Shown here: in pieces, positions 11,509-33,361 of the stretch
Layout of the letters: each line of letters starts with the position of its first letter
How positions within the stretch are numbered: the first letter of the stretch is position 1
Assembly: GCA_030145595.1 (NCBI GenBank)
Contig: JAQYVG010000003.1
Coordinates: forward strand, 1 to 33,361
DNA from: Desulfobacterales bacterium
GTDB taxonomy: Bacteria; Desulfobacterota; Desulfobacteria; Desulfobacterales; UBA11574
Direction of reading: 5' to 3'
Length of the DNA stretch: 33,361 nucleotides
Notes under the pieces: generated by a model
What the model saw: only the letters and a program-made list of their open reading frames with translations
Told to the model about the DNA's origin: nothing
The model's database searches: none
Made by a program: the position numbers and the translations under genes

Positions 11509-11524
11509 TGCAGTACCCTCATTT

Positions 11525-15158: not shown

Positions 15159-17015
15159 TCAAGCATCATATCTGCGGGTCTTATCATCAAATTCGACCTC
15201 TTGCACCAAAGCAACGCTGTGAAACTCTAGGATTGTTTGCGGAGCAAGCTGTATTTTTGCACCATTGTTTAAGGTTACACCAGTGGCGAGCACTCTTTTT
15301 TCGTCGACCTTGATACCATTTTTGCTGCCCAAATCACGGATATAGAACCGGCCGTCATCAAAATAGATCTCGCCGTGCTTCCGCGATACCGACCGGTCCG
15401 GAATACAAATCGTATTATCGCTGCTACGCCCGATAAGCGTAGTCCCGGCAACCTTAAAACTTTTCCCGGTCTCAAGGCTATCGCTCTCGACGACTTTAAC
15501 CGCAGCGGGCGGCACCGTCTGCAGATCTTGATCATCCTCCATAAAGACGGTTTCATCTTCTATGTCCGCTGCCGGCACTTCATCCAAAGCCGTGGTTTTG
15601 TCCGGCTTGACCGGGACCACAACCGTCTGCCGTTGCCTGTTGATAAACCACCAGGTAATCCCGCCGGCAAGGGCCAGCAGTACAACGAGTCCGGCGATCC
15701 AGGTCATCGCAGGTTGCGCTCTTTGGTCCTTACCGGCAGCCGGCGGCGGTGCCGGCCGGGTCAATCCAGCCACTTTTAGAGTCATCTCGGCTGATCCGGT
15801 CCGTCCGTTGACGTCGATGGCTTCGACACGCAAGATATGGAGTCCGCCGGGAAGTCCGGCCGTATCCCAGTGAAAAATATCAAACGGAGCAGTTGCACGC
15901 TCTTCTTTTAGGCTGGCACCTACATAGTATCTTACTTTGGCAATCGCTCCCTGCGGTTTGATGCTTGTTTTTACCGTTACAACGCCTTTGACATGCTCGG
16001 CTGTACCCGGCTCGACAAAGCTAATGCTCAGCGGCCGGGAAACCGGCAGCGGCGGTGACCAGAAACGCTTTTCATCCTGCCTGCGGGCACCTGCATGCTG
16101 AACCTTCATTACCAGCGTGTGCTCTCCACTTGGACTGTGAGTAATATAGGTAATTAGATACTGATTTTTCAGTTGATTGGCTATGGCCCGGTAAAGCCCC
16201 TGAAGATCGGATAGAGAAGTCGCCAACAGATTCCGCCCTCCGGTGAAACTGGCTATGCGACCGAGTTCCCGGGCATCAACCTTGGGGCCCACTCCGATAG
16301 TAAAAATCGGTACGCGAATAGATTTGGTGGTGGCGACATCGATCACATCGTTGGCCGTGTGCATACTGCAGGCACGCCCTGCTTTCTCATCCTTACCGTC
16401 CGTGAGCAGGATGATTGCCCGCCTTCCTCTGGGAATCTCTGCTGCTTTTTGAACAGCCTCAAAAGCTGTATCATATAAACACGTGGCTGCATTCGGTTTG
16501 GCGGCCAGTGCATTAACGGCCTTAATGACCGCGTCGTGATCGGTTGTAAAATCCACTTTTAGGCTCGGTTCATTATTGAAACTAAAAAGTGCCACCCGAT
16601 CATCCCGGGACAACATGGAAATGAAATTGACAGCAGCCTTTTTAGCTGCGGTCATCGAGGTCTGGCCGGCACTCCTGGCCTGCATGCTTCCGCTAGTATC
16701 AATGGCTAGCACAACGGTCATAGGATCGGTGGCGGGAGACACATCGTCAACGGTAACCTTCCTGCCGTCTTCAAGAATTTCAAAATCTGTGTCCGACAGC
16801 CCCAAAACGGGATTATTATCAGCAGCGGTCACACTGGCATATACGCGCACCTGATTTGCAGACTTGTCGGCAGCCGTTACGGTCTCGATATAGTTGATGG
16901 TCAACTCTTTGATGGATTGGCCCCACGCCGGCACAGTCATGGTAACCACTACCAATAAGCAGACTGTCAGGTATATTTTAACTTTACAATTCAAGCGGTT
17001 TTGCTCCACCGGCAT
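15159..17015 (-). CDS. Signal/TM - vWA domain - Ig-like domain - TM helix - C-terminal FHA domain protein
   Basis: MIDAS 'VLAIDTSGSM' plus 'LLTDGKDE'. TM helix 'WIAGLVVLLALAGGITWWFI'. FHA 'LIGRSSDN...VSRKHGEI...DLGSKNGIKV'. Start set to ATG 17015, preceded by GGAGGAGG. Confidence 0.85.
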   Translation of the reverse strand: MPVEQNRLNCKVKIYLTVCLLVVVTMTVPAWGQSIKELTINYIETVTAADKSANQVRVYASVTAADNNPVLGLSDTDFEILEDGRKVTVDDVSPATDPMTVVLAIDTSGSMQARSAGQTSMTAAKKAAVNFISMLSRDDRVALFSFNNEPSLKVDFTTDHDAVIKAVNALAAKPNAATCLYDTAFEAVQKAAEIPRGRRAIILLTDGKDEKAGRACSMHTANDVIDVATTKSIRVPIFTIGVGPKVDARELGRIASFTGGRNLLATSLSDLQGLYRAIANQLKNQYLITYITHSPSGEHTLVMKVQHAGARRQDEKRFWSPPLPVSRPLSISFVEPGTAEHVKGVVTVKTSIKPQGAIAKVRYYVGASLKEERATAPFDIFHWDTAGLPGGLHILRVEAIDVNGRTGSAEMTLKVAGLTRPAPPPAAGKDQRAQPAMTWIAGLVVLLALAGGITWWFINRQRQTVVVPVKPDKTTALDEVPAADIEDETVFMEDDQDLQTVPPAAVKVVESDSLETGKSFKVAGTTLIGRSSDNTICIPDRSVSRKHGEIYFDDGRFYIRDLGSKNGIKVDEKRVLATGVTLNNGAKIQLAPQTILEFHSVALVQEVEFDDKTRRYDA

Positions 17016-17114
17016 CGCCTCCTCCCCAAACTTATAAAGTATAATTAAAGGCCCTTTAAGTGTCAACTGGAACAACGAGACCTTTGAACTGAAACAGCAG
17101 AATTGATTGGGAGT

Positions 17115-18968
17115 CTATCTTTTCAGGTCCTTGACAACGAATGCTTTGAGATCGGCTTCTATTTCCGGATGTTTGGTTTTAATCACCTTGGGCTGGACAT
17201 TGACCAAATGATAAACGCGCTCATAAACAGTTTGGCTGATGACGACTTCACCTGCTGCGGCGCCATCGCAATACCTGGATGCACGGTTGACAGTGTCGCC
17301 GATGACCGTATACTCCAAACGTTCCGCGGACCCGATGAAACCGTGGATGACTGCACCTGTGTGAACACTGATGCCTACGTCAAAAACAGGCAGCCTGCGC
17401 ACTTTTCTTCCTTCTCCCAGCTTGCTGACCGCCCGCTGCATTTCCAGCGCCGCCTTAACCGCCTTTTCACATTGATCGTCGTCTTTTTCGGGACTGCCGA
17501 ATACCGCTAAAACCGAATCTCCGACATATTTGTCCACAACACCGTCATGTTCGAAAACTATGGGAACAAAGGCATCGAACATCTCATTGAGCATCCGGAC
17601 AACTTCGTCCGGCTCCATCTCGGCACTAAGCGCGGTGAAGCTGCGCACATCCGAAACGAGAATAGTAACCGGATCCACTCTTTCTCCTCCGGCCCGTAAA
17701 CGGCTGTCTGTAGCGCAAATTCGTTTGGCAATCTTGGGGGAGAACTGCCTTGAAAGATGAAATCGCAGTTCTTTTTCTCGTTTGAGGTCTTTTCGTAATA
17801 TGTGATCCCTGACAAACATCGCCACCTGGTTGGCAATGGCGCGCATCAATTCCAGATCGGTTCCAAAAAACGCTTCATGGGTTAAATAGTTGTCAACGTA
17901 CATCACTCCCAGAACCTGCTCTCCCAGCAGCAGCGGAACATAAATCGCCGACTGTACGCTGTAGTAAATAGCACTTTCAGGCGTATCATTTCCCTTATGG
18001 CTTTCAGCAGCAGACCAGATAAAAGGCTCACGCCTGTCATAAGCCCGTTTGATCCAGGTCATGCTAACGGAATGATCCCCCTGGGGCCAGTGAGCTTTGA
18101 GAAGCAGCTCGCCCCGCTCGTCCGGCAAGAGAACGGCTCCGCGCTGGGCGTTGGGAATCGCCTGTTGCAAATGTTCGACCAAAATTTGCACCAGAGAATC
18201 CAGTGTGTCGGCTGCACTTAGCATATGACAAAGGTCGTTGAAAGCGGTTAATTGCCGCCGCGACCGGGCAAGCATTTCATCCGCAGAATCATGGCTGGAT
18301 ATCGCATGCTGAAGTGTCGTAATATCCTTTAAATCAACAATAGTCCCTTCGAGAGCCGGGACTGGAACCGGTTCCGCAACAGGTGGCATCGGCCCCACGA
18401 AGTTTGTAACAATGGTTGCAGATTCCGGTGCCTTATCTTCGTCGGATATGTCAACTTTGGGTTCCACCAACTCTGAAATCAAAACGTCAGCATCCGTATC
18501 ATGGCCTGGATCATCAGCGGATGGTATCGGCTCCACCTGCTTCCTGGTTATGGTGGGAGAATCCGGGAACGGGCCGGGAGCGGATACAGGCTCTTCCGGT
18601 CCTATCTGCTCCATTAAACTGGTGGGGGAATCCGAAACCGGACCTGGATCGGGTTCGGATGCCGGCGGTTCCATCTGAACTTCAATCATCGTCCACCCAA
18701 TCTGCACCTTATCCCCCGGTTTCAGCCGCGTTTCGGTTTTAATTGCAGCTCCGTTCACCAAGGTACCATTGGCACTGCCCAGATCTTCAATCCAATATTC
18801 ATTGTTTTCAAAAGTAAGGCATGCATGAATATGGGAAATATAATCATCTTCTACCAAATCGATATCAATGTACTGGTCGGGAGAAGGGTTGCGGCCGAAG
18901 ATGATCGAATTCGATTCAGTCTCAAACTGTTTCGGCGCTTGTAATGGCAGCGAATAACTGATTATCAT
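17115..18968 (-). CDS. FHA - acidic/Pro-rich linker - GAF - class III adenylate cyclase
   Basis: FHA 'IIFGRNPS...ISHIHA...DLGSANGTLVNG'. GAF-like 'RGAVLLPDERGELLL...AIYVPLL'. Cyclase 'VTILVSDVRSFTALS', 'DKYVGDSVLAVFG', 'EYTVIGDTVNRASR'. Start is ATG 18968 (alternative GTG 19007). Confidence 0.88.
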   Translation of the reverse strand: MIISYSLPLQAPKQFETESNSIIFGRNPSPDQYIDIDLVEDDYISHIHACLTFENNEYWIEDLGSANGTLVNGAAIKTETRLKPGDKVQIGWTMIEVQMEPPASEPDPGPVSDSPTSLMEQIGPEEPVSAPGPFPDSPTITRKQVEPIPSADDPGHDTDADVLISELVEPKVDISDEDKAPESATIVTNFVGPMPPVAEPVPVPALEGTIVDLKDITTLQHAISSHDSADEMLARSRRQLTAFNDLCHMLSAADTLDSLVQILVEHLQQAIPNAQRGAVLLPDERGELLLKAHWPQGDHSVSMTWIKRAYDRREPFIWSAAESHKGNDTPESAIYYSVQSAIYVPLLLGEQVLGVMYVDNYLTHEAFFGTDLELMRAIANQVAMFVRDHILRKDLKREKELRFHLSRQFSPKIAKRICATDSRLRAGGERVDPVTILVSDVRSFTALSAEMEPDEVVRMLNEMFDAFVPIVFEHDGVVDKYVGDSVLAVFGSPEKDDDQCEKAVKAALEMQRAVSKLGEGRKVRRLPVFDVGISVHTGAVIHGFIGSAERLEYTVIGDTVNRASRYCDGAAAGEVVISQTVYERVYHLVNVQPKVIKTKHPEIEADLKAFVVKDLKR

Positions 18969-19377
18969 AGCCTTCTTGTGACATTTGTTTTGATCAAGCG
19001 GAGGCACGGCTCTGCCGTTGTTTTTGCATGGCGAAACGTTATTGAAGTTCCCTGTGGTCCCGATTATCTGGATCTGCGCTGCGGCAAACTACGATGAATA
19101 CACTCGCTGTTTCAGTTTAAAATGAAGCTTCAAGGTGATCAACACCGGTTGGCTCAAGCATGTCGTCAAAACCGTTATCGGATGATTTCAATTAAATACA
19201 ATGACTTGTGTCAATTTGTCAAGAAGAATCGGCCGGTCGTCATATGCATAAATGAAGAAATCGGTTGCGAAATCGCAGTATCTCCGCTATTTTCTAACCA
19301 GTGTTCCTATTTGAGTCTGAATTTCTGTTAAAGAAGTTATCCGGCTTTATTTCTTAAAATAATTGAGGAGAAATATT

Positions 19378-19857
19378 ATGCCAAATGTTGACGTGCTTGA
19401 AATTCTACTACAATCTAAGGTGTTTAAGGGACTTTCTGATGAACATTTAAAAAAGTTTGCCGACCGTGGTGATATCGTTACCTTTGAAAAAAATGAAACA
19501 ATCATAAGCGAAGACCAAGCCGGACACCCTTTTTTTATTGTCATCAAGGGCCAAGTAGAAGTCGTTCTTCCTGAGCCAGCCTCGGGTCAAGATTCCGAAA
19601 GGGTTACAAGGATAAAGCTAAACCTGCTGGAGCAAGGTGACTGCATCGGGGAATATTCTCTGATAGACGAACAACCGGCATCTGCTACAGTGATTGCGCT
19701 GGAACCTTGCATACTTTTTGAAATTTCTAGATCGCATTTTGAAGAAATTATTAACATCAGTGATTTTATCGCCAAGACTGTTTATAAAAACATCCTTTTA
19801 ATCACTATCGAAAGGGCTCGCGACGGTAATCGGCAACTCGATATATGCTTTTATTAG
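19378..19857 (+). CDS. Stand-alone CAP/Crp-type cyclic-nucleotide-binding-like domain protein (no DNA-binding domain)
   Basis: 'FKGLSDEHLKKF...FEKNETIISEDQAGHPFFIVIKGQVEV...GDCIGEYSLIDEQPASATVIA'. The GE of the phosphate-binding cassette is present, but the cassette Arg is Ala. GAGGAG RBS before ATG 19378. Confidence 0.7.
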   Translation: MPNVDVLEILLQSKVFKGLSDEHLKKFADRGDIVTFEKNETIISEDQAGHPFFIVIKGQVEVVLPEPASGQDSERVTRIKLNLLEQGDCIGEYSLIDEQPASATVIALEPCILFEISRSHFEEIINISDFIAKTVYKNILLITIERARDGNRQLDICFY

Positions 19858-21452: not shown

Positions 21453-22370
21453 ATGCGAATCTTACTAATCGGCCAAGCGGCATTTGCCGCAAAAACGTTG
21501 GAAAGTATGCTGGCGAGGGGCGACGACGTTGTGGCGGTTTACGCACCGCCGGACAGGCCCGGCGGCCGGCCGGACCCCCTTAAGGATACGGCCGCTTCCA
21601 AGGATATCCCGGTTTATCAGCCCACAACGTATAAAGATGATCAGGTGTTTGCCGAGTACAAGGAACTCAAACCGGATCTCACTGTTTTGGCGTTTGTCAC
21701 GGATATTATTCCGGCACGCTATTTCGAAGTTCCCACGCAAGGGGCTATCTGCTACCATCCTTCGATCCTGCCGCGCCATCGAGGGGCCAGCGCCATTAAC
21801 TGGGCCGTGATCATGGGGGCTACCAAAACCGGGCTGACGATATTCTGGCCGGACGGCGGTATCGACACCGGTGAAATCCTTTTGCAGAAAGAAATTGACG
21901 TAGGTCCGGGCGATACCACCGGTTCCCTCTATTTCAACTACCTTTTCCCCATGGGAGTGGAGGCCATTTTAGAATCCATCGATCTGATCAAAGCAGGTAA
22001 TGCTACCAGAATTTCTCAAGATGAAGCCGAAGCCACCTATGAACCGCCCTGCGATGACCGTGTAGCCGGCATCGACTGGTTCAAACCAGCTCCAGAGGTA
22101 CACAATCTTGTACGCGGCTGCGATCCCCAACCCGGGGCCTTCGCCATGTTCAAGGATGAAAAAGTTCGTTTATATGGTGCAAGACTCATGGAGGAGTCCC
22201 ATGACAAGGCACCGGGAACAATCCTCCAGATTGATGATCAAGGTATACAAGTGGCGGTCTCGGGCGGTAAACTGGCCGTCTCCAAGGTCCGGGCGCCTGA
22301 CATCGGAAAAGTCGCTGCGGCCGAATTTGCCGCTGAGAAAGGGCTGAATGTGGGAGATATGTTAACCTAA
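21453..22370 (+). CDS. Formyltransferase family protein (Fmt-like; resembles the N-terminal hydrolase domain of 10-formyl-THF dehydrogenase)
   Basis: 'MRILLIGQAAF', 'YHPSILPRHRGASAINWAVI', 'GLTIFWPDGGIDTGEILLQKE'. The catalytic His and Asp context is conserved. AGGAGG RBS. Confidence 0.8.
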   Translation: MRILLIGQAAFAAKTLESMLARGDDVVAVYAPPDRPGGRPDPLKDTAASKDIPVYQPTTYKDDQVFAEYKELKPDLTVLAFVTDIIPARYFEVPTQGAICYHPSILPRHRGASAINWAVIMGATKTGLTIFWPDGGIDTGEILLQKEIDVGPGDTTGSLYFNYLFPMGVEAILESIDLIKAGNATRISQDEAEATYEPPCDDRVAGIDWFKPAPEVHNLVRGCDPQPGAFAMFKDEKVRLYGARLMEESHDKAPGTILQIDDQGIQVAVSGGKLAVSKVRAPDIGKVAAAEFAAEKGLNVGDMLT

Positions 22371-22431
22371 TCCGGCTGGTGAGAAAATCATAGATTCTCA
22401 ATAAGTACAGACAAGTTAACTGTGCATCATC

Positions 22432-22508
22432 ATTCTGGATGCCCGCCTTCGCGGGCATGACAGGGTTCTGGTACGTTAGTCATTCCCGCGAAGGCAGGAA
22501 TCCAGAAT
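22432..22508. repeat. REP-like palindromic element pair (inverted 30-nt arms, each containing a GC-rich hairpin)
   Basis: attctggatgcccgccttcgcgggcatgac (22432-22461) against gtcattcccgcgaaggcaggaatccagaat (22479-22508), reverse complements with a few mismatches. This is the widespread 'IPAKAGIQ / AFAGMT'-type intergenic repeat. Confidence 0.7.
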
Positions 22509-22591
22509 AAATTATTTGCAAAAAAAAGACCTTTGAAAATGCCTGCAACGGACATTTTCAAAGGTCTTGTATTTTAATATGTATTTCCTTT
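22497..22591. repeat. Copy 1 of a ~95-nt repeat carrying a terminator hairpin (copy 2 at 27521-27615)
   Basis: Aligned by eye over 95 nt without gaps. I count roughly ten mismatches, most of them in the left third. Same orientation. Confidence 0.8.
22520..22576 (-). terminator. Rho-independent terminator (possibly bidirectional) between the convergent formyltransferase and GcvH-like genes
   Basis: Stem AAGACCTTTGAAAATG / CATTTTCAAAGGTCTT (16 bp). An A8 run on the + strand gives U8 after the hairpin on the minus strand. A weaker T-rich tail follows on the + strand. Confidence 0.7.
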
Positions 22592-22717
22592 ATCCAGCGG
22601 GAGGTTTACACTATCGTTGCATACATAACACATCGAGCTTTGATAAAAATATTATTTTTTGCAACGTTTATTAAATTCAGAATCCTACTATGGATCCGGG
22701 CACAAAATTATTGACGA

Positions 22718-23647
22718 TCAGGTTTTAAGAAAGGTTTTTATAAACTTGGCCCAGTTTTCCCCTTCCAGTTCCTGGGAAATATCTTCAACCGAAACACCGC
22801 CATCTGCGGCCACCGAAAAATCCTCATTGGCCATGGCAAAGAGCTTTTCCCTTTCCTCATTAATAAAATTGCGGGCCTCTTGGCCATAGTAGAGTCCCTT
22901 TAAGTTTTTGCGCAGCCTGGTTGGCTCAATAGTAAATAACCATCCATTTTCATAGGGAGATTCATTGGCCAGCTCGGGTAGATCCCAAAGTTTATAGTTA
23001 ACATGTGACACTATGCCATCCATTGGGGAGAGGACCTTTGCAGCCTTTCCATTGCGTCTGACTTGCAATCCCACCTCACCTTGTTTTACTTCCTGGCCGA
23101 TATTCGGCAAGTCAATCCTGCCAAGCTTACCGAGCAGCTTCTGGGCAAAGTCGTCCAGACCTACCCGAACACGTCCGCCATATTCGGGTTTGGCCCATGC
23201 ATGGCCCTCATGATAGTAAAAGTCTTCCGCCAGTTCGAATCCGCTCTCCTGGGTTCGGGCATTTACCGGCAGGATCTCGGCTTGCAGACGCTCCTGCATC
23301 ATCTGATCAAATGAGCATGTGCCGCACTCATAAGCACTGGGGCATATCTTGCGACCGACTTCCCCGGTAATCATATACCGGCATTGTCGCCGATTAGCCG
23401 GGAACTGCATCATCTTTTCCACCCAGGTTTCATTGAACTTCTCAGGCGCTGCCGGAAACGGCTGCATTACAGCGGCCGCCTTATGCCGGGCCACCTTATC
23501 CTGCATGCCGTGGTCGTATGAGCATGTGGAGCAATCAAAGTTGTTATCACACAGTTTGTAGGACACAACCCCTGCCTCCATCCATACGCATTTCTTCTTT
23601 CCCGCTGGAACAATTCTCATCGATTCTCTCTTTTTTGTAGCTTTCAT
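22718..23647 (-). CDS. GcvH-like (glycine-cleavage H / lipoyl-carrier fold) protein with duplicated N-terminal 4-Cys motifs
   Basis: C-terminal half 'YYHEGHAWAKPE...VRVGLDDFAQKLLG...LPNIGQEVKQGE...SPMDGIVSHVN...SPYENGWLFTIEP' matches the GcvH fold pattern. The N-terminus has two copies of C-x12-C-x5-C-x2-C. GGAGG RBS. Confidence 0.75.
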   Translation of the reverse strand: MKATKKRESMRIVPAGKKKCVWMEAGVVSYKLCDNNFDCSTCSYDHGMQDKVARHKAAAVMQPFPAAPEKFNETWVEKMMQFPANRRQCRYMITGEVGRKICPSAYECGTCSFDQMMQERLQAEILPVNARTQESGFELAEDFYYHEGHAWAKPEYGGRVRVGLDDFAQKLLGKLGRIDLPNIGQEVKQGEVGLQVRRNGKAAKVLSPMDGIVSHVNYKLWDLPELANESPYENGWLFTIEPTRLRKNLKGLYYGQEARNFINEEREKLFAMANEDFSVAADGGVSVEDISQELEGENWAKFIKTFLKT

Positions 23648-23725
23648 TTTATTTTCCTCCTAATTTTTACCTGTTTTTTATTATCGTTTTTTTGTTTGTT
23701 GACTCGATTATTAGCAAGAGTTATT

Positions 23726-23741
23726 AGCAAGAGCTGTGCCA
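23726..23741 (-). promoter_or_regulatory. Sigma-54 (RpoN) -24/-12 promoter TGGCACagctcTTGCT (minus strand)
   Basis: Exact consensus match, about 80 nt upstream of ATG 23647. It sits directly downstream of an operon encoding a sigma-54-dependent response regulator. Confidence 0.8.
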
Positions 23742-23956
23742 CCATGTAACAGAATGAAAAAAAAGATTATAACCATCTGATATTTTACATATTAATTTTC
23801 AAGGGATTGCAACAGGTTCCAAAGCTGTATGTCGGACTGCCTAAATATTCGGCAAACAATATTTATCATAAAACTGGAGAATGGCGTAACCTTCTGATTA
23901 TTAGATAAATATAGAGGGTGCCGAAAAACAAGACAGGTTGCCGAGAATATCGACAT

Positions 23957-24517
23957 TCATGTAGGGTTCTGGTCGAGGGCTTTTTCAAGATGCCATCTGA
24001 AGAGTTCAAAACAGGTAAGGCAAAAGTCGGGGTGTTTGAAATCCGTATCCTCCATCCGGGCTGAGGAATACATAACGCAACGCCGATCTCTGCAATGGGT
24101 TAGGCCGAATGTGTGGCCCAGTTCATGCAGGGCGGTCTTTTCTAGCCTGACCAAGAAAAGATCTGGATTTGATGGCTGGTCATAAAACTGGGGGTAAAGC
24201 CGATGTAGAGAGATAATGGAGTGTTGACCTTCAATTTGTGCCAATCCAAAAACAAACTTAAGAATGGGTACATACAGGTCTGCGGGAGTAACGCCAATAA
24301 ACCTCAGGGTGTCACTTGGACATTGTCGCAGGAGGTGCTTTAATATCAGTTTTGAATTATACTGACACCGGGTCTGATTATACGCATACTCAGGACTTTC
24401 CATTCTCGAAGAAATCTTGCAGGTTAGACCACATCGGGCCGAGATACATTCCGCAAGGTGCTCGAGAATACTTTTGTCCACCGAACCGACAGCGCAGATG
24501 GTAACACATCTTGGCAA
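23957..24517 (-). CDS. amzA: Archaemetzincin-family zinc metalloprotease (peptidase M54)
   Basis: 'HELGHTFGLTHCRDRRCVMYS...DFCLTCF' matches the HExxHxxGxxxC-x4-CxM...CxxC archaemetzincin signature. Putative TTG start 6 nt after the upstream stop. Confidence 0.8.
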   Translation of the reverse strand: MPRCVTICAVGSVDKSILEHLAECISARCGLTCKISSRMESPEYAYNQTRCQYNSKLILKHLLRQCPSDTLRFIGVTPADLYVPILKFVFGLAQIEGQHSIISLHRLYPQFYDQPSNPDLFLVRLEKTALHELGHTFGLTHCRDRRCVMYSSARMEDTDFKHPDFCLTCFELFRWHLEKALDQNPT

Positions 24518-24523
24518 GGTGAT

Positions 24524-25876
24524 TTAGGATTCCTTTTCGATATGATATTTTTCAATCTTATTGTAGAGGGTCTGCCGGTCAATTTCCAGTACACGAGCTG
24601 TTTTGCTGATGTTCCAATCCGTTTCTTCCAGAATTTTATTAATATGCATTTTTTCCATCAATTTTAGCGACTTGGGCAATGCTTCAGTTCCCAACTCCTT
24701 GCGTGAAAAGGGGAGATCCTCTGTTACGATTTCTATGCCACGCCCGATAACCAGCGCCCTTTCAATTACATTTTCCAATTCCCTCACATTTCCGGGCCAG
24801 TTGTAATCCATTAACAATTTCATGGCGGAGGACACGATTTTTACCGGCTCTTTATTCAGTTCCAGACAATATCTGCGGATAAATGCCTTTGCCAGCAGTG
24901 GGATATCTTCTTTTCGTTCCCTTAGCGACGGTACGTGGATTGATATGACGTTCAATCGATAAAAAAGATCTTCACGAAATCGGTTTTCGGAAATCGCCTT
25001 CTTCAGGTCCTGATTAGTGGCCGCCAGAATACGTACATCCACTTTTATCTCTTCCTGACCGCCCAGACGTCTGAACTCCTTTTGTTGCAAAACCCTTAAA
25101 AGATCCACCTGTGTCTTTAAACTGATGTCTCCGATTTCATCCAAAAAAAGTGTTCCCTTATCGGCCATTTCAAATCGTCCCTTTCTGGTATGCTCTGCAC
25201 CTGTAAAGGCGCCCTTTTCATAGCCGAACAGTTCACTCTCCAACAGAGAATCGGGCAAGGCCCCGCAACTCACCGCGATAAAAGGCATGTAACAGCGCTG
25301 ACTGTTCCCGTGAATCGCCTGGGCAATCAGTTCTTTACCGGTGCCGCTTTCACCGGTGATGAGTACGGTAGAGTCTGTTGGCGCCACCTGGGAAATCAAA
25401 TCATATATCTTTTGCATGACATCGCTTTTACCAATGATCTCGTCATATTCTGATCTTTCTTCCAGTTTTTGGCGCAGTAAAATATTTTCTAAGACCAGTT
25501 CCTGGTGGGTGACAATTTTCTTTATCTGCATTTCGATTTCGTCAGGGGAGAAGGGCTTGACCAGATAATCAAAGGCCCCTTCCTTCATAGCCTGAACCGC
25601 GGTATCTACCGTGGCATAGGCTGTCATCATGAGTATCTCCGCCTCTGTATTCACTTCTTTTCCTTTAAGCCGTTTCAGGGTCTCAACCCCATCCATGCCC
25701 GGCATTTTCAGATCCAGCAAAATCACGTCCCAGTTTTTCTTCCGGGTCATGGTAATGGCTTCTTTGCCGCTTGCAGCCAGGCCGACCTCATAGCCTTCCT
25801 CCATCAGCCAGTCTTTAAGAGATTCTCGCATCGGCGCTTCATCATCAACGACAAGAATACGGGGCTTTTTGGTCAT
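24524..25876 (-). CDS. Sigma-54-dependent response regulator (REC - AAA+ - Fis HTH; NtrC/AtoC class)
   Basis: REC 'ILVVDDE...VILLDLKMPGMDG'. AAA+ 'GESGTGKE', 'ESELFGYEKGAFTGA', 'WPGNVRELEN'. HTH 'NISKTARVLEIDRQTLYNKI'. GGAAGGAG RBS. Confidence 0.93.
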   Translation of the reverse strand: MTKKPRILVVDDEAPMRESLKDWLMEEGYEVGLAASGKEAITMTRKKNWDVILLDLKMPGMDGVETLKRLKGKEVNTEAEILMMTAYATVDTAVQAMKEGAFDYLVKPFSPDEIEMQIKKIVTHQELVLENILLRQKLEERSEYDEIIGKSDVMQKIYDLISQVAPTDSTVLITGESGTGKELIAQAIHGNSQRCYMPFIAVSCGALPDSLLESELFGYEKGAFTGAEHTRKGRFEMADKGTLFLDEIGDISLKTQVDLLRVLQQKEFRRLGGQEEIKVDVRILAATNQDLKKAISENRFREDLFYRLNVISIHVPSLRERKEDIPLLAKAFIRRYCLELNKEPVKIVSSAMKLLMDYNWPGNVRELENVIERALVIGRGIEIVTEDLPFSRKELGTEALPKSLKLMEKMHINKILEETDWNISKTARVLEIDRQTLYNKIEKYHIEKES

Positions 25877-25911: not shown

Positions 25912-27357
25912 TCATTCGCACGGCAGGCGAACCTTGAACGCACTTCCCTTGTCAAGTTCGCTTTCCACTGCTATTGTACCGTTGTGCTGGGTGATGATGC
26001 CGTAAGCTACCGCAAGGCCGAGACCCACACCTTGTCCCTCTTCTTTGGTGGTAAAAAAAGGCTCAAAAATATTTTCCATGTCTTTCCCGGCAATGCCGCA
26101 GCCCGTATCGGAAATCACGATCTCTAAAAACCCCTCGGGCGCGACGCTCCTATTGGTTGTTACCGTCAGGGTGTCTCCTTTTTGCATGGCCTCTGAAGCA
26201 TTGTACATGAGGCCTAAAAGGACCTGCTGGATCTGTCTAAAATCGCATTGAACTTTTGGCATATTCGACTCAATGCTTTTTTTCAGTTGAATTTCTTTTA
26301 TTTTCAGATCATGGGAAATAATAATCAGGGTCCTGTCGATAATGTCTGTAATGCTGTGGCTTGAAATGGTAATTTTTGATTGACGGGAAAATGCCAGAAG
26401 GTTTTTTACGATGTCTCCACACCGGGCTGTCTCTGATTCCATGGTAGCCAAATATCCGGAAATGTCCTCAAGTCTTTCAGGGGAGAAGCGATTCCGGGAT
26501 ATAAGCTTGATCATCAACCGGATATAGGTCAGAACCGTGGCAAGGGGATTGTTTATTTCATGGGCGATGGTAGCGGCCAATTTGCCCAGGGAGGCCAGCT
26601 TATCCTGTCTCATCAAGGCCTTCTTCCATTTAATCTCTTTGGTGATATCCCTTGATACTTCTATCACACCGACCAGCGTATTATTTTCAAAGAGAGGATG
26701 ACAGGATATGGAACAGTAACTCTTTTGATTTCCCTTGTCCAGATGAATATGCGTTACGCGGGTAAGTTCCTGGGTTTCTTTAACCTCGGCAAGTGGGCAG
26801 GGATGCTCTTCCCCTGAGCAGGGTGCGTTTTGATGATGCGAAATTTCGTAGCAGTAACGACCAATAACATTTTCCCGTTCAAGACCTAATTTGGTAAGCA
26901 GGGTATCATTGATATCCAGAATGCGGTAATTGAGATCAATGATCATGACGTCGTCCTGTATCAGGTCATTTATGACAAGCCTATACATGGTTTTTGTTTT
27001 TTCAAGTTCTTCGTTGGTCTGCTCCTGAATACTGGAAACGCCGACCTCCCAGAAAAGCCGGGCGGTGTTATGGTTAATGGCCCGGACGCTTTTTTTCTTT
27101 TTGGATACAATGTTAAAGAACACCTCATTATCGCCGGTCAGCTCGATAATAAGGTCGAGATCATCCCTGTCAAAGAACTCATTATAATCATTGGTGATAA
27201 AAAGCCCTTTTTCTTTTGCTTTGACCAAGCCTGGCGCATCGTTTTTTATGTCGGCTACGGCTATTATATTAGGGCTTAATTCGGCAAAGACATGTTTTTC
27301 TATCATCTCCAGTAAAACGCGGCACCGGGCACCACCGCCGACGACAGCAATGTTCAT
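25912..27357 (-). CDS. Sensor histidine kinase: Rossmann-like N-domain - Cys/His-rich PAS - HisKA - HATPase_c
   Basis: 'MNIAVVGGGARC' (GxGxxG-like). PAS region with 'CYEISHHQNAPCSGEEHPCP...YCSISCHP'. H-box 'ATIAHEINNPLATV'. N/G boxes 'LGLMYNASEA', 'DTGCGI', 'GQGVGLGL'. Start set to ATG 27357 with GGAGG 7 nt upstream (ORF-track TTG 27453 is unlikely). Confidence 0.88.
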   Translation of the reverse strand: MNIAVVGGGARCRVLLEMIEKHVFAELSPNIIAVADIKNDAPGLVKAKEKGLFITNDYNEFFDRDDLDLIIELTGDNEVFFNIVSKKKKSVRAINHNTARLFWEVGVSSIQEQTNEELEKTKTMYRLVINDLIQDDVMIIDLNYRILDINDTLLTKLGLERENVIGRYCYEISHHQNAPCSGEEHPCPLAEVKETQELTRVTHIHLDKGNQKSYCSISCHPLFENNTLVGVIEVSRDITKEIKWKKALMRQDKLASLGKLAATIAHEINNPLATVLTYIRLMIKLISRNRFSPERLEDISGYLATMESETARCGDIVKNLLAFSRQSKITISSHSITDIIDRTLIIISHDLKIKEIQLKKSIESNMPKVQCDFRQIQQVLLGLMYNASEAMQKGDTLTVTTNRSVAPEGFLEIVISDTGCGIAGKDMENIFEPFFTTKEEGQGVGLGLAVAYGIITQHNGTIAVESELDKGSAFKVRLPCE

Positions 27358-27520
27358 GGTCAACCTCCAGTTTGAAACAGAATAATTTTCTGCTTTCGGA
27401 AATGAGGTTTGTTTACTCTCATTTATTGTATAAGATCTGAATCTTGCAAGCAAGATTCAGGTAAAAACTTATGGATATATAACACATGTAAAATGGGAAT
27501 GTAAATATCGAGTCTGTCCG

Positions 27521-27615: not shown

Positions 27616-29652
27616 TTAGGCGGCTTTCTCGATCTTAACCGCGCAAACCTTGTATTCCGGAATTTTGGCCGTCGGATCGGCTGCCGCATTGGTAAGCACA
27701 TTGGCCGGGCTTTCCGCAAAATGGAACGGCACGAAAAGCAGGCCCGGTTTTACCTTGTTGCTGACACGAGCCGACACTTGAATTTCACCTCTGCGGGTGG
27801 AAAGTTTGACCGTATCACCGTCTTTAACCGCCAGCGTTTCGGCATCCTCCGGATGGATTTCCACATATCCGTCTTTCTGCTCGGCATCCAGATGGGGTGA
27901 GACGCGCGTCATGGTGCCGGTATGATAATGGGCGAACATGCGGCCGGTGGTGAGAAAATAGGGGTATTCGGCGTCCGGCATTTCAGCAGGATCAAGGTAC
28001 TCGATGGCATGGAAAAGACCTTTGCCGCGGGTGAACTGCTCCTTGTGCAGAAACTGGGTTCCCGGGTGTTCGGGGTTCGGGCAGGGCCACTGCAATCCGT
28101 CCAGCCCCATCCTTTCGTAAGACATGCCGGCATAGCTCGGTGCCGCGGTGGTGACTTCCTTGAATATGTCTTCGGGACCATCATATTTCATCTCATAGCC
28201 CATGGCCGTTGAAAGCCTGGAGATGATTTCCCAATCTGCCAGTGTATCCCCTAAGGGTTCGATGGCTTTGTTGACTTTCATACAGCGGCGTTCCGTATTG
28301 GTAAATGTTCCGTCTTTCTCAGCCACCGAAACTGCTGCCAGCACTATATCGGACCTTGCGGCGGTCTCCGTCAGATAGATGTCCTGACAGATCAGAAGTT
28401 CAAGTTTGTCGAGGGCCTTATCAAGATGATTTTGGTCCGGATCACTCAACATCGGATTCTCACCGATGACGTACAGAGCCTTTAATTTGCCGTCGATCAT
28501 GGCCTGAACCATATCGGTGATGGTTAATCCTATCTTGTTCGGCAGCTCTTTGCCCCAGGCTTGGGAAAATTTTTCGGTGTTGGCTTCAACGGTTACCGGC
28601 TGATAGGCCGGAAAAACATTGGGCAGGCCGCCCATATCACAGGCGCCTTGAACATTATTTTGCCCCCTCAAAGGGTTGACACCACCGCTTTTCACACCGA
28701 CATTGCCGCACAGCATGGCAAGATTGCAAATGCTTTTAACATTGTCCACACCGGTAGTATGCTGAGTAATTCCCATGGCATAAAGAATAGAAGCCGGAGA
28801 GTTGGTGGCGTACAGTTCGGCCATCTTTTCCAGATCCGCCGGGGCAATACCGGTGATGGGCTCAACCTTTTCCGGCGTATACGCATCCAAGGCTGCCAGA
28901 AATTCCTCAACCCCCTCGCACCTTGCCTCCATGTAGCTTTTGTCGTGCCAGTCATTCTTGACAATGATATGCATCATGCCGTTAAGCATGGCTACGTCGC
29001 TTCCGACGCGCTGGGTTACCGCGACATCGGCAAAGCGTGACAGCTGGATATTTCTCGGGTCGGCCACGACCAGTTTGGCCCCTTTTTCCTTGGCCCTGAA
29101 AACCCGCCTTGCAATCAACGGATGGCATGCCGAGGTGTTTGAACCGGTGATAAAGATACAGGCGGCATCCTCGATTTCCTCAATGGAATTTGTCATGGCT
29201 CCACTTCCAAACGCAGCGGCAAGACCTACCACTGTAGAGGAATGTCAGAGCCGTGCGCAGTGGTCGACATTGTTGGTGCCGATCACCGCCCGGGCAAACT
29301 TTTGAGTTAAATAGTTTTCTTCGTTAGTAATTTTAGCAGAAGCCAGTACACCGACACTGTCCGGTCCGTGGGCGCTAACGATTCCCTTAAGCTTTTCTGC
29401 TGCAGTCTGGATGGCTTCATCCCAGGTGGCGTCTTGAAATTCGCCATTCTTCTTAATCAGGGGAGTGGTCAGGCGCTTATCGCTAACCACATGTTCATGC
29501 AGGTTCCAGCCTTTAATGCAAAGTTTGCCTTCATTCACCGGATGGGTTTTCATCGGGAGGGTATCGGTTAGCTTTCCGTCCATCACCTGGAAAAGGACAC
29601 CGCATCCTGTGCCGCAATATGAACAAACTGAAGGAATGATTTTGTAATCCAT
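27616..29652 (-). CDS. fdhA: Formate dehydrogenase catalytic subunit (Mo/W-bis-MGD), selenocysteine-containing; in-frame UGA at 29245-29247
   Basis: ORFs 29245..29652 and 27616..29232 are in the same frame. Reading through the TGA gives '[30 protein letters not shown]', the canonical FdhA/FdhH active-site context. N-terminal 4Fe-4S motif 'CSYCGTGCG'. No twin-arginine signal peptide. Confidence 0.9.
29214..29234 (-). promoter_or_regulatory. Putative bacterial SECIS hairpin for the fdhA UGA
   Basis: RNA CAGUGGUA-GGUCU-UGCCGCUG: an 8-bp stem (two G-U pairs) with a GGUC-containing apical loop. It starts 10 nt after the UGA, similar in position and loop to the E. coli fdhF SECIS. Confidence 0.55.
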
Positions 29653-29708
29653 ACCTAACGCTCCTTGGTATATGTTTGAAGGTTCAGGTCAGTATTTTAC
29701 TCTATCAA

Positions 29709-30578
29709 TTACAACGGTTTAGGCTCCAGAGTCACCTCATCTCCCAGCAAATTGAACGGAGATTGATCTGCATGCGTGCCGGTCTCGTAACCAAACTCAT
29801 CCTCCACCGTTGCATTTACCTTGCGGTAGAGCAGCCGCAGCGGAATATCCACCGGGCAGGCATCTTCGCACAAGCCGCAGTCGATGCATCGCCCTCCCAT
29901 ATGGACGGCCCTGACAAGGTGAAAAATGGGGTTTTCGGGCGGAAGGGTTCCGGTAGCGATCAGCTCCGGGTGTTCCAGGCTGCATTCCTTGCAAAAACAG
30001 ACCGGGCAGATGTCCCGGCATCCGTAGCACTTGATGCATTTTGAAAACTCATACATCCACCGCTTAAAGCGTTGCTCCATATCAAAGACTTCGGCGTCTT
30101 CGACATCCATATTGTTGTCGATGCCGACTTCCTTTTTATAAACAGCGGCTTTTTCAGGTTCAAGGTAGGAGCAATCCGCGTGTTTTTTAAGTTTGGAAGG
30201 GCAGCAGTTTAGATTAATTGTTTCCACGTTTTCAGGATTCAACTGGTTCCAGACATAGAGCACATTCAAAGCTCGCTGGTTGCAGTCCCTAACCATAAGC
30301 CCTATTTTAATGGCCGGCTTTTCAGCCGCAATCTTGGTGGCGATCTTTTCAAGGGAATAGCGTGCCTGGCCGCCGATCAACTCATCGACTTCATCAAGAT
30401 TGTTCTTGGTAAAAAAATGGGGCAGTGGATGTCCTTGAACCATTTTGTACCCCAGAAATACATCGATCTTATCCTGATCGATCCACTCTTTGACTTGCTC
30501 TTGCATGGTGGCAAGCGTACTTGGTTTACCGTCGGTAGTGCTAAACGGTTCGAGCCATTTTTTCATCTGCTCTTCCAT
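29709..30578 (-). CDS. 4Fe-4S dicluster iron-sulfur protein (putative electron-transfer subunit between FdhA and MvhD/HdrA)
   Basis: C-terminal 'CIKCYGCRDICPVCFC' and 'CIDCGLCEDACP' ferredoxin-type motifs. The N-terminal ~170 aa are unassigned. The RBS GGAGGA overlaps the mvhD stop. Confidence 0.65.
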   Translation of the reverse strand: MEEQMKKWLEPFSTTDGKPSTLATMQEQVKEWIDQDKIDVFLGYKMVQGHPLPHFFTKNNLDEVDELIGGQARYSLEKIATKIAAEKPAIKIGLMVRDCNQRALNVLYVWNQLNPENVETINLNCCPSKLKKHADCSYLEPEKAAVYKKEVGIDNNMDVEDAEVFDMEQRFKRWMYEFSKCIKCYGCRDICPVCFCKECSLEHPELIATGTLPPENPIFHLVRAVHMGGRCIDCGLCEDACPVDIPLRLLYRKVNATVEDEFGYETGTHADQSPFNLLGDEVTLEPKPL

Positions 30579-30579
30579 G

Positions 30580-31077
30580 TTATCCTCCCTCTACACTCTG
30601 AACTTCGGCGCTCTTGGCTTCGATTTCTGCCTCGCACGCATTCTCGATGGCTGACAGATCAAGCTCTCCCGGTAACGGGCTGGGACCCATTGCCTTGACT
30701 TTATCAGTGAAAGCAGTAACCACCTGGGCAAATTTCTGGGCCTCGGCCGAGGATATCCAGTCCAAGTGTAAACGGCCTTCTAATCCCATAAAATTCAAAA
30801 GTTCCTGTAGAAACGTCATCCGTTTGATGGTCATGAAATTACCGTACAGGTAATGGCAGTCGCCAACATGTCACCCGCCCACCATAACGGCATCGGCTCC
30901 GCTTTGAAAGGCCCTCAAAATATGGTGAGGCGATATGGTGGCGGAGCACATCACACGAATGGGCCGCACGTTGGTCGGATACTCCAGACGACTCACACCC
31001 GCCAGATCGGCGGCCCCATAGGCGCACCAATTACACAAAAAAGCGATTATCTTAGGCTCAAAACTATCCTCATTCAC
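30580..31077 (-). CDS. mvhD: MvhD-type (methyl-viologen-reducing hydrogenase delta subunit) protein, selenocysteine-containing; in-frame UGA at 30871-30873
   Basis: ORFs 30871..31077 and 30580..30834 share a frame. Read-through gives '[22 protein letters not shown]...RVMCS...[22 protein letters not shown]...LDWISSAE'. This matches the MvhD pattern GGCHxGDCHY with Sec in place of the first Cys. Confidence 0.85.
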
Positions 31078-31098
31078 CTTTCTCTCCTTTTCAATGGA

Positions 31099-33361
31099 TT
31101 AAAAACACAACGCACTCTTGATCTGGGCGTAAAGCTGATTGTTGTCAAATCCCATCAGTTCCGGTGCCTCGGAGGGACAGGCCGCCGAACAGGCTCCGCA
31201 GCCCTTGCAAAGGGCCGGATTCACTTCAGCCACAAATTTTTCTGCGTCAAAATCAATGGCATTAAAGGGACAGACATTAATGCATCCCAAGCATCCGGAA
31301 CAAAGCTCCGGAGCGATATGGGAGATTATGCCGCCCAGCATGATTTCTTTTTTGGCCAGAACCGTGACGGCTCTGGCGGCCGCGGCCTGAGCCTGGGTAA
31401 TCGATTCATCGATGGTTTTGGGCGCATGGGCCAGCCCGCAGACAAAGACACCGTCCGTGGCAAAATCGACCGGCCGGAGTTTGACATGGGCTTCTGCAAA
31501 AAAGCCGTCTTGATTCAGGGGCACTTTATAAAGCTGCGCCAGTGGAGTTTTTGCAGCCGGTACGATGGCGGAAGCCAGAATTAACAGGTCCGGTCGAATT
31601 TCCATCAGACGACCTAACACCCTGTCGGAGAACGCAACCTTAAGATCTTCTTGCTCTGCTTCCACGGTTAAATCTTTATCCGAGTCGTAGCGGATAAAAA
31701 CAATTCCGGCCGATCGTGCCTGCCGGTATAGATCCTCTCGCAACCCGTAGGGGCGCATATCCCGGTACAGAATATAAACATCCATGCCGGGATTTTGCTC
31801 TTTGAGATTCAGGGCGCTTTTGATGGATTGTGTACAGCAGACCTTGGAGCAGTAGGGACGCTCCGGGATGCGCGAGCCGACACATTGGATAAAAACAGCC
31901 GATTTAAAATTTTCCAAAGCAGGATCATTTTCGATAAACCGTTTTTGCAATTCCAGCCCGGTAACCACGCGGGGATCCTGTCCGTATAAATACTGGTCCG
32001 GTTTGAGTTCTGAAGCTCCGGAAGCAATGATGGTTACCCCGTGCTCCAACACGCTGCTGCTGCCGTTGCTTTGGATGGTTGTTTTAAAATTGCCGACAAA
32101 CCCTTCCACCTGTTGAATCTTTGCATTCAAAAAGGTCTCGATGTTATTGTCCGACCCGACGGCACTGGTTAACTCGTTAAGGTGCTGCTGAACATTCTCG
32201 CCGCGCCAGGTTTCATGCAGAGACCGCGCCTGTCCGCCTAAAGCGTCTGTTTTTTCAACCAGAAAAGTCTTGAATCCCTGCTGGGCCATATTTTGGGCCG
32301 CCGCCATGCCGGCAACACCGCCGCCGATTACCAAAACCGACTGGGTAACCGCCATAGTCGATTCTGTCAGAGGCTGTAAAAGCACTGCTTTGGCCACCGC
32401 CATTCTGACCATATCTTTTGATTTTTTCGTGGCTTCTTCAGGATCGTATTTATGGACCCAGGAGCACTGGTTGCGGATGTTGCTCATCTCGAACAGATAT
32501 TTATTTACACCGGCGTTAATCAAAGTTTCCTGAAACAGCGGTTCGTGAGTTTTGGGAGTACAGGCGGCCACAACCACCCGATTGAGGTTATGCTCTTTAA
32601 CGACCTCGGTTATTTTTTCCTGGGTGTCCTGGGAGCAGCTGAACAGGTTTTCCTCGACATAGGCCACACCGGGCAGACTCTTGGCAAACTCCACCACGGC
32701 CGGAACATCGACGAAGGCTGCAATATTGGTACCGCAGCGACAGACAAAAACACCGACCCGGGGAGGCTCGCCACGCACATCGATCTCTGCGGGGACATCT
32801 TTGGTTTTCGTGAGGGTCCAGCGGGCTTCGGCCAGCCGGCTTCCCACCACGCCCGCGGCGGCACTGGAATCGACCACCGACGCCGGGATATCCTTGGGGG
32901 CCTCAAAAGCACCGCAAACATAAATGCCCGGCTGGTTACTTTCGACCGGTGCAAAGCTGCTGGTTTTGGCAAAATTATAGTGGTCCATATCAACACCCAG
33001 CCTTTGGGCCAACTCCACCCCTTCCGGACTCACCATCAGGCCGATTGACAACACTACTATATCAAATCCCTCTTCAACCCGTTTGCCGGCCTCATCCACA
33101 TAACGGATCAGAAGTTTGCCGGTTTCATCATCTGGAATCACGTTGGTGACCTTGGATTTGACGAATCGGACGCCGACTTCATCCTTGGCGCGGTTGTAAT
33201 AGCGCTCAAAGTCTTTGCCGTAAGTGCGGATGTCGATATAAAATATGGCGGCGTCAAGGTCTTCGGCAGCGTGATCTTTAGCCAGCATGGCTTCTTTGAT
33301 GGCATATGTACAGCAGACTCCGGAACAATACCCATGGGCACCCAGATGTTCGTCCCGTGAT
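31099..33361 (-). CDS. hdrA: Heterodisulfide reductase subunit A-like flavoprotein, tandem-duplicated HdrA; 5' end lies beyond the window
   Basis: The frame is open to base 33361 ('SRDEHLGAHGYCSGVCCTYAIKEA' precedes the listed Met). Second module: 'VGVFVCRCGTNI' N-domain, 'VIGGGVAGMAAAQ' FAD site, 'YCSKVCC', and a C-terminal 2x[4Fe-4S] region 'CSGCLGCINVCP...CKGCGACSAACP'. Confidence 0.88.
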   Translation of the reverse strand, partial: SRDEHLGAHGYCSGVCCTYAIKEAMLAKDHAAEDLDAAIFYIDIRTYGKDFERYYNRAKDEVGVRFVKSKVTNVIPDDETGKLLIRYVDEAGKRVEEGFDIVVLSIGLMVSPEGVELAQRLGVDMDHYNFAKTSSFAPVESNQPGIYVCGAFEAPKDIPASVVDSSAAAGVVGSRLAEARWTLTKTKDVPAEIDVRGEPPRVGVFVCRCGTNIAAFVDVPAVVEFAKSLPGVAYVEENLFSCSQDTQEKITEVVKEHNLNRVVVAACTPKTHEPLFQETLINAGVNKYLFEMSNIRNQCSWVHKYDPEEATKKSKDMVRMAVAKAVLLQPLTESTMAVTQSVLVIGGGVAGMAAAQNMAQQGFKTFLVEKTDALGGQARSLHETWRGENVQQHLNELTSAVGSDNNIETFLNAKIQQVEGFVGNFKTTIQSNGSSSVLEHGVTIIASGASELKPDQYLYGQDPRVVTGLELQKRFIENDPALENFKSAVFIQCVGSRIPERPYCSKVCCTQSIKSALNLKEQNPGMDVYILYRDMRPYGLREDLYRQARSAGIVFIRYDSDKDLTVEAEQEDLKVAFSDRVLGRLMEIRPDLLILASAIVPAAKTPLAQLYKVPLNQDGFFAEAHVKLRPVDFATDGVFVCGLAHAPKTIDESITQAQAAAARAVTVLAKKEIMLGGIISHIAPELCSGCLGCINVCPFNAIDFDAEKFVAEVNPALCKGCGACSAACPSEAPELMGFDNNQLYAQIKSALCF

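Follow-up and report, generated by a model that had tools for sequence, protein, structure and literature searches.

Organization of the locus

We analysed a 33,361-nt stretch of DNA from a Desulfobacterales bacterium (NCBI GenBank assembly GCA_030145595.1, contig JAQYVG010000003.1, positions 1 to 33,361; hereafter the window), concentrating on a minus-strand gene whose 309-residue product combines an N-terminal domain carrying eight cysteines (C8), a barrel with the fold of the glycine cleavage H protein (GcvH) and a helical C-terminal tail. The open reading frame (ORF) for this C8-GcvH-like protein had been pointed out in an earlier inspection of the letters alone (the sequence-only reading) and is indeed present. 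Along the minus strand it is the last in a series that runs HdrA, Fe-S protein, selenocysteine-containing FdhA, histidine kinase, sigma-54 regulator, M54 peptidase and C8-GcvH-like gene. The sequence-only reading had placed it between a two-component system and an Hdr/Fdh operon, which is wrong, the two-component genes themselves standing between. The gene and its control region comprise the following features.

22718-23647, minus strand: coding sequence of the C8-GcvH-like protein, 309 residues, stop codon included (ORF list, ATG start at 23647)
23656-23661, minus strand: ribosome-binding site AGGAGG, 8 nt 5' of the ATG, read from the sequence
23726-23741, minus strand: sigma-54 promoter TGGCACagctcTTGCT, TGGCAC-N5-TTGCT (-24/-12), 94 nt 5' of the ATG, an exact consensus match
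23708-23733, no strand assigned: 13-nt tandem duplication, TTATTAGCAAGAG twice, taking in the -12 element, strain-specific
23838-23854, no strand assigned: upstream activating sequence 1 (UAS1), the proximal palindrome TGCCGAATATTTAGGCA, 113 nt 5' of the promoter, one mismatch, predicted activator site
23919-23955, no strand assigned: predicted distal activator sites, UAS2 TGTCGATATTCTCGGCA at 23939-23955 (-214) and a further site at 23919-23935
22526-22568, minus strand: intrinsic terminator with an 18-bp stem and a trailing T run, about 150 nt past the stop codon
22721-22915, minus strand: conserved helical C-terminal extension, residues 245-309, with an A-D-G-G motif (50-sequence alignment, AlphaFold 2 helices)

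The C8-GcvH-like gene is thus a monocistronic unit, consisting of UAS palindromes, a -24/-12 promoter, a ribosome-binding site, the coding sequence and a terminator on which a formyltransferase gene (21453-22370, plus strand) converges from the other side. Neither this terminated monocistronic unit nor the activator sites and the M54 gene had figured in the sequence-only reading. An Rfam scan of the window found no RNA family. Contigs from three metatranscriptome studies, which are environmental and whose depth is a rough guide only, cover 22633-23654 at 90-99% identity and leave the intergenic region, the 5' leader and most of the M54 gene uncovered. Relatives of the C8-GcvH-like gene are therefore transcribed in the environment, and the limitation of the contigs to the gene is consistent with a separate transcription unit. 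The protein has 412 homologues, the best 120 of which are all about 309 residues long and 68-92% identical to it, and its full-length AlphaFold model reaches a predicted local distance difference test score (pLDDT) of 82.6.

Sigma-54 promoter and upstream palindromes

The promoter is perfect, as the sequence-only reading had stated, and exact matches to TGGCAC-N5-TTGCW number two in the window, against 0.07 expected from shuffles. The second exact site, TGGCACAATGCTTGCT at 2405-2420 on the plus strand, is flanked by a divergent gene for a GAF-AAA+-HTH sigma-54 activator (646-2208, minus strand) and by a GAF-adenylate/guanylate-cyclase gene (2786-4159, plus strand). Judged by the genes that flank them, both sigma-54 sites of the window therefore adjoin activator genes, and the second probably belongs to another activator/target pair.

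Conservation was assessed in a comparison set of 80 related loci, one per species and 1.1 Mb in total, from Desulfobacterales, Desulfatiglandales and relatives, the closest species being Candidatus Desulfatibia vada (97%). A TGGCA[CT]-N5-TTGC-type site lies 60-122 nt before the start of the orthologue in 78 of the 80 loci, in 50 cases as exact TGGCAC-N5-TTGC and in 28 with TGGCAT or one other change, the spacer being variable. Strict sigma-54 motifs occur 85 times in the 1.1 Mb, and 71 of these are at the promoter position of the C8-GcvH-like gene. The comparative support for the promoter is thus strong.

The 13-nt tandem duplication noted in the sequence-only reading is also real. It introduces an extra TTGCT 13 nt downstream and leaves the -24/-12 spacing of the first copy undisturbed. 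It is found in contigs from three sequencing runs of one marine-sediment study, which rules out an assembly artefact as its origin, and is absent from a related strain from a fourth sequencing run and from the two closest relatives in the comparison set, L001 (97% protein identity) and L002. From its presence in the three runs and its absence from relatives it follows that the duplication is a strain-level polymorphism, best seen as a recent slippage event.

Counting of words 5' of the promoters returned TGCCGAAA/TTTCGGCA in 50 of 78 loci, and this enriched word resolves into a 17-bp palindrome, TGCCGAA-N3-TTCGGCA, fixed near -117 from the promoter. The proximal copy is at -114 to -120 in most of the related loci and further copies occur near -197 and -217. 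Among 101 matches to the palindrome with at most two mismatches in the 1.1 Mb, 86 lie 100-450 nt 5' of the start of the C8-GcvH-like gene. The genes likely to act on these sites, and the peptidase gene that accompanies them, are as follows.

24524-25876, minus strand: NtrC-type sigma-54 response regulator with REC, AAA+ (GAFTGA) and HTH_8 domains
25912-27453, minus strand: histidine kinase with a weak Rossmann-like N-terminus, a Cys/His-rich PAS domain, HisKA and HATPase
23957-24517, minus strand: archaemetzincin-type M54 Zn-metallopeptidase (Pfam Peptidase_M54, E=2.6e-28; HELGHTFGLTH and CX4C...CX2C motifs)

Consensus -24/-12 elements, conservation of their position, an activator with GAFTGA and HTH, and upstream palindromes can all be recognized in the sequence, and the layout of kinase, regulator, promoter and palindromes is that of a classical NtrC-type activator with its target. 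This regulatory anatomy is well supported, and the C8-GcvH-like gene is the putative dedicated local target of the adjoining kinase and NtrC-type regulator. The signal received by the kinase seems to differ between lineages, as its PAS motif C-x4-H-x5-C-x6-C is common to only four of the 80 loci, from which it follows that the sensor part varies; the match of its N-terminus to DapB_N/Rossmann-like domains is weak (E=0.005).

Conservation of the gene neighbourhood

The M54 gene is present in 65 of the 66 loci with enough upstream DNA, the sigma-54 regulator in 64 of 66 (72-98% identity) and the kinase core in 61 of 63, with the sensor part again not conserved. The four genes (kinase, regulator, M54 and C8-GcvH-like) keep the same order and orientation almost invariantly; the gene 3' of the C8-GcvH-like gene is variable among the loci and often convergent. 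Of the 25 loci that extend 9 kb or more to either side, 20 have an HdrA-like gene within 10 kb, which supports the link to Hdr-type redox enzymes drawn in the sequence-only reading. In the window itself the corresponding genes form one operon.

27616-33288, minus strand: context operon with genes for an HdrA-like protein (31099-33288), an Fe-S protein (29709-30578) and a selenocysteine FdhA (27616-29652)

The FdhA gene contains an in-frame TGA at 29245-29247 (minus strand), at which ORF lists cut it in two; its context, VDHCARL-U-HSSTV, identifies the product as a selenocysteine enzyme.

A GcvH fold with no conserved lipoyl lysine

22856-23218, minus strand: GcvH-fold domain, residues 144-264 (Pfam GCV_H, E=2.4e-24)
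23045-23059, minus strand: hairpin tip R197-R198-N199-G200-K201 at the place of the lipoyl lysine, with no conserved lysine

The C-terminal half of the protein had been described as GcvH-like, and both sequence and structure comparisons bear this out. The Pfam GCV_H score is 86 bits against a cut-off of 22.2, and a Foldseek comparison of the model with solved H-proteins gave TM-scores of 0.87-0.92 with root-mean-square deviations of 1.5-1.7 A. The cut-offs of the curated GcvH models are missed, however, with scores of 77.1 versus 115.85 for TIGR00527 and 89.6 versus 117 for NF002270, and the protein also falls below the cut-offs of two related models, NF045810 GcvH_rel_desulf (37.8 versus 150) and TIGR03077 not_gcvH (60.1 versus 144).

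We considered whether the protein could be a true lipoylated H-protein, either of glycine cleavage or of the LbpA type, that has acquired an N-terminal extension. The GCV_H domain and fold speak for this, as does an alignment to Escherichia coli GcvH that uses a gap and sets K201 on the lipoyl lysine. In the ungapped alignment to Thermus thermophilus GcvH, G200 is opposite the lipoyl lysine and K201 is one residue out of register, and the model places the hairpin turn at residues 199-200. Against lipoylation, position 201 is occupied by E in 41, D in 22 and K in only 4 of 81 orthologues, K204 is variable too, and the other hairpin columns are dominated by R (64), R (68), N (74) and G (65). A broader alignment of 50 sequences likewise has no lysine among its invariant or near-invariant columns, so that no lysine is conserved in the family; the scores stay below the GcvH equivalog cut-offs given above, and neither gcvT/gcvP nor lipoate-ligase genes are among the annotated neighbours in the window. 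Lipoylation was rejected on the grounds that the lysine is not conserved and on its position in the structure, and we regard a lipoylated H-protein as scarcely credible.

The parallel with lipoate-binding partners of Hdr-like complexes, drawn in the sequence-only reading, fails at the same place, the tip being R-R-N-G-[E/D] in the family whereas the lipoyl lysine of LbpA is strictly conserved in 95 of 95 proteins (Cao et al. 2018, PMC6067878). Since no lysine is conserved in the C8-GcvH-like family and the LbpA lysine is strictly kept, the family is judged from these alignments to be neither GcvH nor an LbpA-type lipoate carrier. The names given to its members in databases, 'glycine cleavage system protein H' or 'lipoate-binding protein', are wrong or misleading.

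The eight-cysteine domain

23273-23608, minus strand: C8 domain, residues 14-125, two homologous four-cysteine (Cys4) modules, each closed by a long helix (AlphaFold 2 pLDDT 83.7)
23522-23590, minus strand: Cys4 module 1, C20-x12-C33-x5-C39-x2-C42, all four cysteines 100% conserved in 81 orthologues
23315-23383, minus strand: Cys4 module 2, C89-x12-C102-x5-C108-x2-C111, all four cysteines 100% conserved in 81 orthologues

The duplicated four-cysteine motif had been recognized from the letters, and its eight cysteines prove invariant. Module 1 is homologous to module 2 (38% identity over 39 residues, E=1e-13), and in the AlphaFold model the CxxC of each is at the N-terminus of its long helix. 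Given the spacing and invariance of the cysteines, the modules are most probably metal-binding, with Fe-S clusters or Zn as the candidates.

Residues 1-135 served as query in an exhaustive HMMER search, which gave 656 representative clusters at E<=1e-3, nearly all with one or two copies of the cysteine spacing, and in this sense the N-terminal part of the protein is a family of its own. The domain is recognized by no model in Pfam or NCBIfam, where only a sub-threshold trace of zf-CHY was seen (E=0.09); Foldseek of the isolated C8-domain model against the Protein Data Bank (PDB) gave no match at E<=10, and a profile search of PDB sequences nothing below E=0.4. When the profile was run against a database clustered at 90% identity, the top 120 matches listed were all close family members. 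By these comparisons the C8 domain is an independent, previously undescribed domain.

Its partners are varied. Among the best 150 C8 representatives, 45 also have GCV_H, 12 have REC and one has a histidine-kinase core, the last with the order TPR-C8-HisKA. We collected 79 full-length REC-(TPR)-C8 relatives, from Aminicenantia, Dehalococcoidales, Planctomycetota and Zixibacteria. In one planctomycetal protein, P0384, the REC-C8 unit is extended by the central and C-terminal domains of FdhE, which is another link of the C8 domain to redox-enzyme accessory machinery. Separately, the relatives P0146, P0163 and P0169 carry an extra N-terminal cysteine motif of about 60 residues (K/R-C-P-F-L-E-E...C...C...C...C) with no Pfam match.

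In REC-C8 proteins the C8 domain stands where a classical response regulator has its output domain, at the C-terminus, which, together with the weak similarity to zf-CHY, raises the question of whether the protein is a zinc-finger transcription factor, with C8 binding DNA and the GcvH-like domain serving as the ligand or effector part. However, in a kinase C8 is N-terminal, elsewhere it is joined to ferredoxin domains, and the Foldseek search against the PDB returned no match to any DNA-binding fold. We consider a DNA-binding role highly improbable.

Genomic contexts in other lineages

Several loci show what can follow the C8-GcvH-like gene; the contigs of some other distant relatives were too short to be informative on context. 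In L018 it is succeeded by genes for HdrL (an NfnB-HdrA fusion), MvhD, HdrA and an Fe-S protein, and a terminator scan found none between it and the HdrL gene. In L089, where the homologue is 39% identical, kinase, regulator, M54 and MvhD are encoded on one strand, and on the divergent strand a sigma-54-like site, TGGCACgctgcGTGCT, is followed by the homologue, HdrC, HdrB (CCG), HdrL and HdrA. The L081 locus (35% identical homologue) has kinase, regulator and M54 genes followed by a perfect sigma-54 site and a gene for a 434-residue protein that comprises a NuoG-type 2Fe-2S domain, two 4Fe-4S domains, one Cys4 module, a lysine-less GcvH-like domain and the tail; 3' of this fusion are the C8-GcvH-like gene, NuoE, a second NuoE-like gene and NuoF.

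In L092, a Dehalococcoidales chromosome, the series starts with rpoN, a kinase with an [FeFe]-hydrogenase-like sensor domain, a sigma-54 regulator and a terminator, and continues with a sigma-54 site, TGGCGAgaaaaTTGCA, and genes for REC-C8, NuoE, NuoF and NuoG-N. The same order of kinase, regulator and REC-C8 is seen in L091. The M54 gene is beside the GcvH-like versions in all contexts examined and was not found in the two REC-C8 loci examined (L091 and L092). In several phyla, then, the sigma-54 two-component genes are followed first by a gene for a C8-domain protein, and the unit that this gene opens often includes NuoEF or Hdr modules. A second 'GcvH' beside NuoEF in Desulfatiglandales loci was discarded: the match came from the ferredoxin part of the query, and the protein is really a NuoG-N/GltD-like fusion with no GcvH domain.

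Proposed function

We propose, with a probability of roughly 0.5, that the C8-GcvH-like protein binds metal and acts as a redox accessory or adaptor of flavin-based Hdr/NuoEF complexes. This is proposed because of the NuoG-type ferredoxin fusion, the operons shared with HdrCB/HdrL or NuoEF genes, and the two sets of four invariant cysteines; the association with the complexes is inferred from these contexts. In such a mechanism the protein would serve flavin-based electron-transfer complexes in the cytoplasm, those of the HdrA/HdrL-MvhD and NuoEF types, with the C8 domain docking on the complex and tapping its cluster chain. The lysine-less GcvH-like barrel, with its basic R-R-N-G tip, would be a protein-docking module instead of a swinging-arm carrier, and the protein would be made on demand, when a redox or substrate signal is relayed by the two-component system. 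As to the M54 peptidase, turnover or processing of the C8-GcvH-like protein is our guess. The 'redox or sulfur-carrier protein' of the sequence-only reading could hold by way of the cysteines or their metal sites, not by way of lipoate.

The same contexts bear on whether the protein might instead be a thiol/disulfide or persulfide carrier, a lipoate-free functional analogue of LbpA or DsrC that would itself be the redox substrate of HdrB/HdrL-type enzymes, with CxxC in place of the lipoamide dithiol. Hdr-like complexes of sulfur oxidation have the GcvH-fold protein LbpA as an essential partner (PMC6067878), the C8-GcvH-like family is enriched beside Hdr genes, in L089 the genes for HdrC and HdrB with CCG domains are directly 3', and both modules have an invariant CxxC pair. 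Nevertheless, two homologous units of four invariant cysteines are the pattern of a metal site, not of a redox-active disulfide; NuoEF-type modules that have no HdrB are equally frequent neighbours, and no sulfurtransferase is consistently adjacent (DsrE occurs in L081 only). We consider a carrier of this kind unlikely; it is the most interesting variant and retains part of the idea first read from the sequence.

A different role, in signalling or regulation, would have C8 sense redox state or metal or bind a protein, feed back on the kinase and regulator or switch the redox complex, and be removed by the M54 peptidase. PspA/PspF and NifL/NifA are circuits of a similar kind, in which the target of the sigma-54 activator is its own modulator. 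Such a role would fit the use of C8 as the C-terminal domain of REC-(TPR)-C8 regulators (12 of the top 150 representatives, 79 full-length relatives), the existence of a TPR-C8-HisKA kinase, the near-absolute coupling to kinase, regulator and M54, the status of the gene as the only detectable local sigma-54 target, mostly monocistronic and so in the window, and the occurrence of REC-C8 in the same place after the sigma-54 regulator in L091 and L092. On the other hand, the fusion of one Cys4 module and the GcvH-like domain of a paralogue to NuoG-type 2Fe-2S/4Fe-4S domains in a NuoEF operon resembles a wired subunit, in L089 and L018 an Hdr operon starts with the gene, and the protein has no DNA-binding or known partner-switch domain. 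We rate signalling as possible, if on the unlikely side.

Several observations weigh against the redox-accessory proposal. In the window, as in most of the 80 loci, the C8-GcvH-like gene shares its transcription unit with no other gene, and no sigma-54 site could be detected at the Hdr/Fdh genes nearby; therefore co-expression with a redox complex is not general. The proposal leaves the invariant M54 peptidase unexplained, metal binding by the C8 domain is predicted from cysteine spacing only, and the presence of C8 in response regulators and a histidine kinase would fit signalling too.

A wider and rather unlikely extension of the redox-accessory proposal is that C8 might be a new metal-cluster docking or sensing domain that ties sigma-54 two-component signalling to bifurcating/confurcating complexes (HdrA/HdrL-MvhD and NuoEF) across phyla. 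In sulfate reducers, its GcvH-like fusion would then be the missing protein partner or substrate of bacterial Hdr complexes, corresponding to LbpA but without lipoate, and a dedicated archaemetzincin would restrain it.

Comparison with known systems

Neither a GcvH-fold protein encoded beside Hdr genes nor an Hdr operon under the control of a sigma-54 two-component system is new in kind. LbpA and the C8-GcvH-like protein share the GcvH fold, an association with Hdr-type genes and extra conserved cysteines relative to GcvH. LbpA, however, is a single domain with a strict lipoyl lysine, dedicated lipoate ligases and a place in sHdr clusters, whereas the C8-GcvH-like protein has no conserved lysine, an R-R-N-G tip, an added C8 domain of 125 residues and a helical tail, is under sigma-54 control and is found in sulfate reducers beside HdrA/HdrL/NuoEF and not sHdr. 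Canonical GcvH (TIGR00527/NF002270) is similar in structure (TM-score about 0.9) and sequence (28-36% identity over about 125 residues), with H-x-W near the first strands, but the C8-GcvH-like protein differs from it in its sub-cut-off scores, the lack of a lipoyl lysine and of a gcvT/P context, and two additional domains.

GcvH-L of Staphylococcus and Streptococcus is lipoylated and ADP-ribosylated. It is another divergent GcvH fold outside glycine cleavage, encoded in a SirTM/macrodomain operon in a stress/redox context (PDB 5a35), and the C8-GcvH-like model matches it more weakly in Foldseek (E=7e-5); unlike the C8-GcvH-like protein, it lacks both a Cys-rich domain and control by sigma-54.

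On the regulatory side, the sigma-54 regulator DVU2394 of Desulfovibrio vulgaris (system DVU2394/DVU2395; Rajeev 2011; Kazakov 2015) controls the adh-hdr-flx operon (PMC4641369). There too an NtrC-type regulator and its kinase are encoded beside Hdr-type energy-metabolism genes with a sigma-54 promoter. The system described here differs in that the conserved local target is the single C8-GcvH-like gene, M54 is part of the cassette and Hdr genes are only sometimes in the unit.

No description of the C8-GcvH-like family was found in the literature searched. Neither that literature nor Pfam, NCBIfam or the PDB yielded the fusion of a lysine-less GcvH barrel to C8, the four-gene module with M54, the operator palindrome or the repeated placing of C8 first in sigma-54 redox operons of several phyla. 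The four-gene module (kinase, sigma-54 regulator, M54 and C8-GcvH-like), defined here, is conserved in 80 species or more, and its promoter and operator are clear. Which physiological partners and substrates the many HdrA/HdrL and NuoEF-type complexes of sulfate reducers and syntrophs have is a long-standing question. The module, together with the recurrence, in several phyla, of a domain for which no model exists at the head of sigma-54 operons for such complexes, names proteins, a promoter and an operator for study.

Other features of the window

A eukaryote-like signalling cluster occupies 10804-19007 on the minus strand, with genes for an FHA protein, a PP2C phosphatase, a CHASE2 Ser/Thr kinase, a VWA-FHA protein and an FHA-GAF-adenylate cyclase, and is followed by a gene for a cNMP-binding protein (19363-19857, plus strand). 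A transposase/integrase gene (rve_3, HTH_32, HTH_21) is at 6990-8069 on the plus strand.

Between the formyltransferase gene and the terminator of the C8-GcvH-like gene, the region 22430-22510 contains two copies of a short repeat in inverted orientation, TTCTGGATGCCCGCCTTCGCGGGCATGAC and GTCATTCCCGCGAAGGCAGGAATCCAGAA. Contigs of about 30 nt from one metatranscriptome match 22479-22508 at a depth of 27-145, far over that of the flanks, which points to a repeat element present in many copies or to a small RNA of high abundance.

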